Source: Eledone cirrhosa
Lineage: Eukaryota
Assembly: GCA_964016885.1 (NCBI GenBank)
Contig: OZ024742.1
Span: 116,002,001-116,066,000, forward strand
DNA length: 64,000 nucleotides
Reading direction: 5' to 3'
Positions 54,540 to 55,136 of this stretch are shown here, in pieces (position 1 is the stretch's first letter; each line of letters opens with the position of its first letter). The position numbers were made by a program, and so were the translations under genes. The notes beneath the pieces were generated by a model. It made no database searches. It was given only the letters and a program-made list of their open reading frames with translations, and was not told where the DNA came from.

Positions 54540-55136
54540 ATATATATGTGAAGATAGACATAGAATATTCGAAAATATTCTGTATGTTTATAATAAACAT
54601 TTTGAAGACCTAATCGCTATAGAATAGAATACGTCACGTATTACAATTAGATTCTCGATAAAAGCAAGGGAAGTAACCTACGCGTTTCATTCTTATTAGA
54701 AATCTTCAGGATTACATATCCAGTGCTTTTATCGAGAATGACACAGCTAGAGACTTATAGAATACTTAGCTGTGTACAGGAACTGGTTTGAAAGAGCGGT
54801 TGCCGGTCCGGCAGAAATTAGAAATTGGATTAAATGCTCTGAAATAGCGATATATATGTGAAGATAGACATAGAATATTCGAAAATATTCTATAAGTCTC
54901 TAGCTGTGTCATTCTCGATAAAAGCACTGGATATGTAATCCTGAAGATTTCTAATAAGAATGAAACGCGTAGGTTACTTCCCTTGCTTTTATCGAGAATC
55001 TAATTGTAATACGTGACGTATTCTATTCTATAGCGATTAGGTCTTCAAAATGTTTATTATAAACATACAGAATATTTTCGAATATTCTATGTCTATCTTC
55101 ACATATATATCGCTATTTCAGAGCATTTAATCCAAT
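54540..55136. mobile_element. Second locus of the 311-bp family: ~1.1 units plus an inverted ~250 bp
   Basis: Highly similar to the 5453-7839 unit; strand switch at ~54885-54890 (tattct microhomology). Hammerheads at 54673-54715 (-) and 54935-54977 (+): gtaatc CTGAAGA t-ttct aata agaa-t GAA ACGCGT A ggttac. Confidence 0.9.

Follow-up and report, generated by a model that had tools for sequence, protein, structure and literature searches.

The window analysed here, a 64,000-nt stretch of AT-rich animal DNA with many microsatellites, carries at positions 54540-55136 a hammerhead-bearing repeat that faces an inverted copy of itself, and a sister array of the same family lies at 5453-7839. This raises the questions of how the former locus (locus 2) was formed and whether the differences between the two ribozymes reflect selection on the RNA fold. 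Our results suggest, with a probability of roughly 0.8, that locus 2 is a recent and independent retrotransposition product of one subfamily of a high-copy, non-coding and non-autonomous derivative of a Penelope-like element (PLE), that is, a non-LTR retrozyme.

Locus 2 comprises about 1.1 units of a 310-bp repeat placed head-to-head with an inverted arm of 0.8 unit. In the left arm (54540-54891, 1.1 periods) the minus strand is ribozyme-sense, and the outer end, termed site b, lies in the tract ATATATAT, which leaves the boundary ambiguous within 54540-54547. The right, inverted arm (54886-55136) is ribozyme-sense on the plus strand and has its outer end at site a. The arms meet at a 6-bp microhomology, TATTCT (54886-54891), at the foot of a hairpin within the unit. 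A 'tail' of 26 nt (55111-55136, plus strand; 34-35 nt counting the AT tract) is present at a single end only, comparable to tails in the cited passages of PMC8557442 and PMC11167929. The locus is bordered by (TA)n target tracts at 54427-54547 and 55135-55157, and a target-site duplication is unreadable within (TA)n. The two arms do not differ over 225 of 225 nt; in 228 nt there is a single mismatch, at the edge of the junction. The second, partial period agrees at 68/68 and 42/42 positions. The period is 310, not 311 as the first-pass annotation had given for this locus. Locus 2 is a young copy. The identity of its arms implies that its differences from the array arrived with the template, unless the arms were homogenised by gene conversion or assembly, either of which could be an alternative source of the identity.

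The right arm contains a type I hammerhead at 54935-54977 (plus strand), recognised by motif and fold. Its predicted parts are helix I (54935-40/54972-77, 6 bp including one U.G), the core CUGAAGA (54941-47), helix II (54949-60, 4 bp) on a U.U pair at its base (54948/54961), GAAA (54962-65) and a palindromic CGCG (54966-69), with the cut predicted after 54971 (GUA). An identical hammerhead lies on the minus strand of the left arm (54673-54715). The wider ribozyme domain (54911-54999, plus strand) adds a 3-bp extension of helix I and a 16-bp outer stem (54911-26/54984-99), and has its mirror copy at 54651-54739 in the left arm. Helix III is a single A-U pair capped by CGCG, which gives the palindrome ACGCGU (mini helix III, dimer type). 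The core CUGANGA...GAAA...UH, the paired helices I and II with helix I open-ended, and the short palindromic helix III that would permit a dimer are all present, and the motif CUGANGA...GAAAC...GUH has 16 matches in the window, some overlapping, compared with 0.32 expected. The predicted structure fits a canonical-type type I hammerhead of the dimer type. In the cited passages, the canonical metazoan dimer type has a helix I of 6 bp, a helix II of 4 bp and a palindromic helix III of 1-2 bp (PMC4209133). A U.U at the base of helix II is known from an axolotl retrozyme; it occurs in HHR_Amex2 as in the 310-bp unit, and the helix III of HHR_Amex1 resembles that of the unit (PMC7229834, passages cited).

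No Rfam hammerhead model matched at the gathering score. The best model, HH9, reached 17.1 bits against a threshold of 52 (E 0.23), with core and helices in register in both arms; Rfam matches to miRNA and scaRNA models had E values above 2 and were attributed to chance. The 310-nt unit folded better than 100 of 100 shuffles (z=-4.8). When the monomer was folded, the competent fold was 3.6-3.8 kcal/mol above the minimum. The duplex of the ACGCGU palindrome was calculated at -7.5 kcal/mol, a figure for the duplex alone, the dimer itself being a pseudoknot. Only one of nine predicted Xenopus retrozyme dimers was cleaved in vitro according to the cited part of Li et al. (bioRxiv 10.64898/2026.07.22.740005), so the activity of the locus-2 hammerhead is not to be assumed.

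The sister array is formed by 6.1 identical 311-bp units (5453-7360) and an inverted arm of 1.55 units (7357-7839) joined at the microhomology ATAT (7357-7360), with site a at its left end (5453) and site b at its right end (7839). Its six full units have no mismatches among them, and the inverted arm to 7839 is identical over 482 of 482 nt. The array and the locus-2 monomer differ at 11 of 311 columns. Six of these columns are inside the hammerhead, namely one in the 5' strand of helix I, one at N7, two in loop 2 and two just 3' of the cut (one substitution and one indel), a concentration with P=0.0015 by columns and P=0.026 when counted as events (4 of 9). The other five lie outside the ribozyme, one in the outer stem and four elsewhere, and one of the five disrupts a hairpin base pair in the array copy according to the predicted folds. 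All five substitutions that separate the array unit (5453-5763) from the apparent majority are A-to-G or U-to-C, a post hoc observation that possibly reflects template editing or chance.

The comparison bore out every difference that the first-pass annotation had named in describing a structure-preserving divergence. N7 is C in the array and A in locus 2, and loop 2 reads AACG in the former and AATA in the latter. Helix I still pairs in both, as GTAGTC/GAC[T]TAC with 6 bp and a 1-nt bulge in the array, and as GTAATC/GGTTAC with 6 bp including one U.G in locus 2. The outer stem is indeed perfect in locus 2 (16/16 Watson-Crick), and in the array it has 15 such pairs and one G.U. The core is spared, no helix I change is two-sided and compensatory, and the broken hairpin pair lies outside the ribozyme.

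The annotation had also proposed that the inversion breakpoints differ and that locus 2 is an independent insertion. The TATTCT and ATAT junctions are indeed different, and the long and short arms are swapped between the loci. Two of the four flank comparisons scored above 300 shuffles, the aligned parts being TA/TACA microsatellite tracts, and none of the four revealed unique sequence common to the flanks of both loci. These three observations support independent insertion, and we take the two loci to be separate insertions that derive from different subfamilies.

The class to which the family belongs is known: animal hammerhead tandem repeats have already been described as non-autonomous PLE derivatives, as argued in the cited part of Li et al. 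(bioRxiv 10.64898/2026.07.22.740005). The 310-bp unit is within the 150-450 bp of non-coding, tandem non-LTR retrozyme units, has one type I hammerhead, a GC content below 50%, no LTR features (PBS/PPT left aside) and a longest stop-free frame of 59 aa. It thereby resembles metazoan non-LTR retrozymes in the passages cited, which likewise have a non-coding tandem unit of about 310 bp, low GC, a self-paired fold, one type I hammerhead per unit and PLEs in the same genome (PMC7229834; Li et al.). The family is known here from sequence, and its expression, cleavage and circles are predicted from the class. High copy number and dispersal are apparent from the 2 loci in 64 kb and from 561 and 773 family contigs in two runs of one sample (X1 and X3). 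With one ribozyme per strand, locus 2 is not an 'active' copy in the sense of Li et al. (at least two consecutive intact ribozymes), and no monomer release from it is expected; the array passes this definition with six plus two ribozymes.

The layout of both loci points to PLE integration. The PLE signature in the cited passages comprises partial tandems, an adjacent inverted truncated copy and a tail of 30-40 bp at a single end (PMC8557442, PMC3846280). In both of the two loci, a partial tandem adjoins an inverted truncated copy in head-to-head orientation, the ribozyme-sense arms point outward, and one end is at site a (5453; 55136) and the other at site b (7839; 54540-54547). Site b is 26-35 nt upstream of site a, which is the length of the tail, its boundary blurred by the AT tract. 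All four ends adjoin (TA)n, and such runs make up 5.5% of the window. Among the 12 of 79 loose ends of other copies that were listed, 6 fall at sites a or b with TA-rich letters beyond. Similarly, pLTR insertions of PLEs, especially of the Hydra clade, are described with partial tandems, a head-to-head inverted 5'-truncated copy, a single-end tail, (TA)n targeting and a hammerhead in the repeat (PMC8557442, PMC3846280, PMC11167929, passages cited); the 310-bp unit differs in having no ORF and a tail of 26-35 nt against the stated 30-40. Unlike the 310-bp family, the retrozymes in the cited passages of PMC7229834 and Li et al. are presented without head-to-head arms and tails.

Our literature search, with subscription journals and Repbase/Dfam outside its scope, returned no description of the 310-bp family and no account of twin priming for PLEs. 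L1 insertions formed by twin priming have an inverted truncated arm, both 3' ends outward and a microhomology junction. The 310-bp family shares these three features and differs from L1 in the absence of poly(A), in its fixed internal start sites and in its multimeric template. Exact-match scans for the unit found no locus in metagenome contigs and none in viral contigs.

A likely route to such copies can be outlined. Tandem source arrays would be transcribed, and the hammerheads, paired through the ACGCGU palindrome, would cut out monomers that may then be circularised, as in other members of the class. A PLE reverse transcriptase/endonuclease, probably from the (TA)n-targeting Hydra clade by the same analogy, would act in trans and nick both strands of a (TA)n tract. 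Each 3' end could then prime reverse transcription, starting at either of two fixed sites within the unit that lie 26-35 nt from each other, and the two cDNAs would be joined at a short microhomology (4 nt in the array, 6 nt in locus 2) to give a head-to-head copy with a single-end tail. The ribozyme differences would have arisen in the source lineages, where fold-breaking changes would be removed. In the cited passages, purified PLE protein nicks and extends both target strands in vitro, uses two adjacent internal RNA start sites that bound the tail, and inserts without need for hammerhead cleavage (PMC11167929).

The two-strand step is the less certain part of this route. Fold-back self-priming, in which the 3' end of one cDNA anneals on itself and is copied and the endonuclease then trims one end to leave the tail, has been proposed for rotifer PLEs from junction palindromes (PMC3846280, passages cited). 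It predicts identical arms, and the hairpin at whose foot the locus-2 junction lies extends to 10+4 bp across the join. However, the right arm ends in a tail that is absent at the left end, and the left arm has sequence absent from the right, so that fold-back needs an extra trimming step; it also requires a slip of 113 nt, and both strands were extended from two start sites in vitro (PMC11167929, passages cited). Two-strand priming accounts for the single-end tail, and for the sequence that only the longer arm has, with no additional step. We therefore favour priming on both strands at sites a and b with microhomology joining, if only by a modest degree of confidence, and regard fold-back as a plausible second option of lower probability. 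In the array, the start of the long arm falls 3-7 nt, modulo one unit, from the end of the inverted arm, the spacing that should result from one cDNA running into the site at which the other was primed; the corresponding gap in locus 2 is about 80 nt.

A DNA-level origin was also considered, such as a satellite with replication-induced inversion, a MITE or a Helitron derivative, as was an assembly artefact. Helitron remnants do occur in the window, including a decayed Helitron at 24844-29042 with Helitron_like_N and Pif1 2B domains by Pfam, and inverted repeats by long (TA)n are hard to assemble. However, the layout is common to two loci and to a different hammerhead family of 469-bp period, each with its own junction, the end points recur at the same two sites, and an artefact would not create a single-end tail. 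These explanations are thus very unlikely compared with retrotransposition. The 469-bp family (2310-3405) has ribozymes at 2676 and 3145, an inverted truncated arm with the junction near 2521-2528, both ends in (TA)n, and ends about 70 nt apart in the unit.

Several other repeats were found in the window. Further long inverted-repeat elements, often beside (TA)n, lie at 352-690, 33172-33520, 48599-49027, 58056-58395 and 61024-61410. Short repeats of another family (38493-38576, 50754-50900 and 62185-62390) contain a related hammerhead-like core; they are partly tandem and inverted and lie in TA tracts. In addition, a dispersed, partly tandem SINE-like repeat of roughly 200 bp is present at 23998-24562, 30201-30349 and 51673-52075. 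The repeat at 51673-52067 hints at a cephalopod origin of the DNA.

A candidate class of helper is represented in the window. Five decayed stretches resembling Hydra-clade PLEs, spread over 23 kb, were detected by tblastn with two full-length homologues. One of them, identified by tblastn and motifs, is a decayed but near-full-length ORF on the minus strand (45345-47560); the others are at 34564-35511, 36570-37254, 39852-40651 and 57217-57426. The remnants contain CxCX5C linker and GIY-YIG-like motifs, and their homologues, of about 716 aa, have RWK and DKT; such features are ascribed to the (TA)n-targeting Hydra clade in the cited passages (PMC8557442). Pfam found no RT or GIY-YIG domain in any of seven remnant ORFs or in any of the five full-length homologues tested, and over nine ORF remnants it identified just the two from Helitron. 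Since it recognises neither the remnants nor their homologues, the Hydra-clade label rests on motifs read by eye. In the Atlas, one of two remnants had HTH_animal/RVT_1 leads, and nothing usable was returned for the other. The ORF at 45345-47560 shows that the candidate helper class is present in the genome; it provides no sequence link to the 310-bp unit, which matched no autonomous PLE within the 64-kb window and gave AT-rich matches only against the five remnants in low-stringency searches. An older repeat with a CUGANGA-like motif (54157-54350, 55244-55335, 38780-38970 and 47600-47850) has two copies flanking locus 2 in opposite orientation, the first on the plus strand and the second an inverted partial copy. 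The copy at 54157-54350 resembles the sequence immediately upstream of the PLE ORF at 47560 (136/200 columns; score 112.5, shuffle maximum 51), suggesting that PLE-related sequence had used this tract before locus 2 inserted there.

The claim of selection on the fold could be addressed with other members of the family. Contigs of 4 of the 24 listed runs were compared with one period of the unit; the library type is unrecorded, and depths were summed over unphased contigs. The two runs of one sample listed ten substitution sites and four indels at 1% or more, with one alternative letter given per position and alleles below 1% hidden; the array's C7 is absent from this list. None of the listed runs with the family is an RNA run. 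Six variable sites are inside the ribozyme, comprising both helix I sites, N7, both loop 2 sites and position 10.1. N7 is mostly U in these contigs, which brings its letters to three with the two loci, and at position 10.1 the U.U becomes A-U in 17-27%. In this sample, the listed variable sites leave the core, the helix II stem and the palindrome untouched. The six sites avoid all 24 constrained positions of 44 (P=0.0055), or 16 if the core and palindrome are taken (P=0.053), which argues for constraint on the fold in the source lineages.

The support for selection is confined to this family level. In two copies alone, the 12 core positions would all remain unchanged with P=0.64, and a comparison of core and flank rates, in which the core was unchanged (P=0.58 for that outcome), has no power because the flanks hardly vary. 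If the fold were under no selection, neutral changes that only appear compatible with it would explain the sparing of the core in two copies. Moreover, the stem changes in the two loci and the sample contigs are all one-sided, with no two-sided compensatory pair seen; they are transitions to or from G.U, which are easily tolerated, one helix I change is a bulge, and PLE insertion in vitro did not need hammerhead cleavage (PMC11167929, passages cited). However, a random change in the 43-nt ribozyme is compatible with a probability of 0.30-0.35, which gives P=0.008-0.015 for four compatible events (post hoc, substitutions only). The pattern of the six family sites, the three letters at N7 and the change of the U.U at the base of helix II to A-U also speak against neutrality, which we consider unlikely. 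Constraint on the fold in the source lineages is likely, judging from sequence variation.

Selection at locus 2 itself is a separate matter. The intact core and perfect outer stem in both arms might suggest that the locus produces a functional ribozyme RNA selected by the host. Its alleles at three sites, however, have about 8-14% of the family depth and are hence inherited; this share, which amounts to roughly one tenth of the family, places locus 2 in a minority subfamily. The alleles are the same in both arms, which argues against selection at the locus, as undiverged arms leave no time for it. Furthermore, a read-through transcript of either strand is predicted to form a 225-bp hairpin that buries the core, and there is one ribozyme per strand. 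A host-selected product of locus 2 is therefore highly improbable.

Constraint in the source lineages leaves one feature of the family to be accounted for. In the one sample, no part of the unit varies more than the ribozyme: seven sites have a minor allele above 5%, and six of them fall within 43 of 310 nt (P=3e-5), or six of eight when the edge site 54553 is added (P=1e-4). The two positions beside the cut show four allele types. An excess of variability in the ribozyme over the rest of the unit is not accounted for by purifying selection alone; it points either to constraint on almost the whole of that rest or to exchange or tuning of the ribozyme. In the cited passages on the Dolichopoda pDo500 satellite, the core is nearly invariant and changes fall mostly at U7 and in helix I (Martinsen et al. 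2010, PMC2837043), so fold-compatible variation has already been reported, in cave crickets. In that satellite, conservation is higher in the hammerhead than elsewhere in the repeat and compensatory pairs are seen, whereas the 310-bp family shows the opposite, with one-sided changes.

The ribozyme segment might have been exchanged between subfamilies or related families, by template switch, re-ligation of cleaved RNAs or gene conversion, or diversifying selection on cleavage rate might have made it a variable module. The clustering of common sites in the ribozyme, the similar excess between the two loci, the allele types beside the cut and the related hammerhead cores at 38575 and 62185-62390 are in line with this. 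However, the data come from a single sample with rough unphased depth shares and a post hoc test, and strong constraint on the other 267 nt (promoter, RT binding or structure) would give an equal picture. Exchange or diversifying selection is accordingly a tentative explanation, doubtful but better placed than neutrality.

A bolder and improbable extension is that the hammerhead is a fast-evolving, exchangeable module swapped or tuned at the RNA stage, with no change in the remaining 267 nt, and that the monomer is perhaps a free, homogeneous 310-nt circle outside the main host. Heterodimer cleavage, re-ligation or template switching next to the cut would be the RNA-stage routes. Runs X5 and X10, labelled with other organisms and studies, each have one 340-nt contig and no variant contigs (compared over 54546-54880). 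The X5 contig appears as a closed 310 cycle, the six listed differences are common to both contigs and include the minority A-U allele, and nine listed runs have an equal word share of 0.41. The single closed-cycle contigs of X5 and X10 are compatible with a free circle; carry-over, a related species or an expressed circle could each account for them. Should the concentration of variable sites in the ribozyme persist after phasing on a full genome, it would be of importance. If the extended reading were true, thousands of young two-armed copies would serve as an in vivo test of two-site, two-strand PLE priming, and the same copies would test RNA-level recombination in retrozymes.

Taking locus 2 as a recent retrotransposition product, the 310-bp family unites retrozyme units with the full PLE integration signature of inverted arm, tail and (TA)n target. 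This provides structural support for the mobilisation of retrozymes by PLEs in an invertebrate, and the family, being young and abundant, offers material for testing how PLE inversions form.
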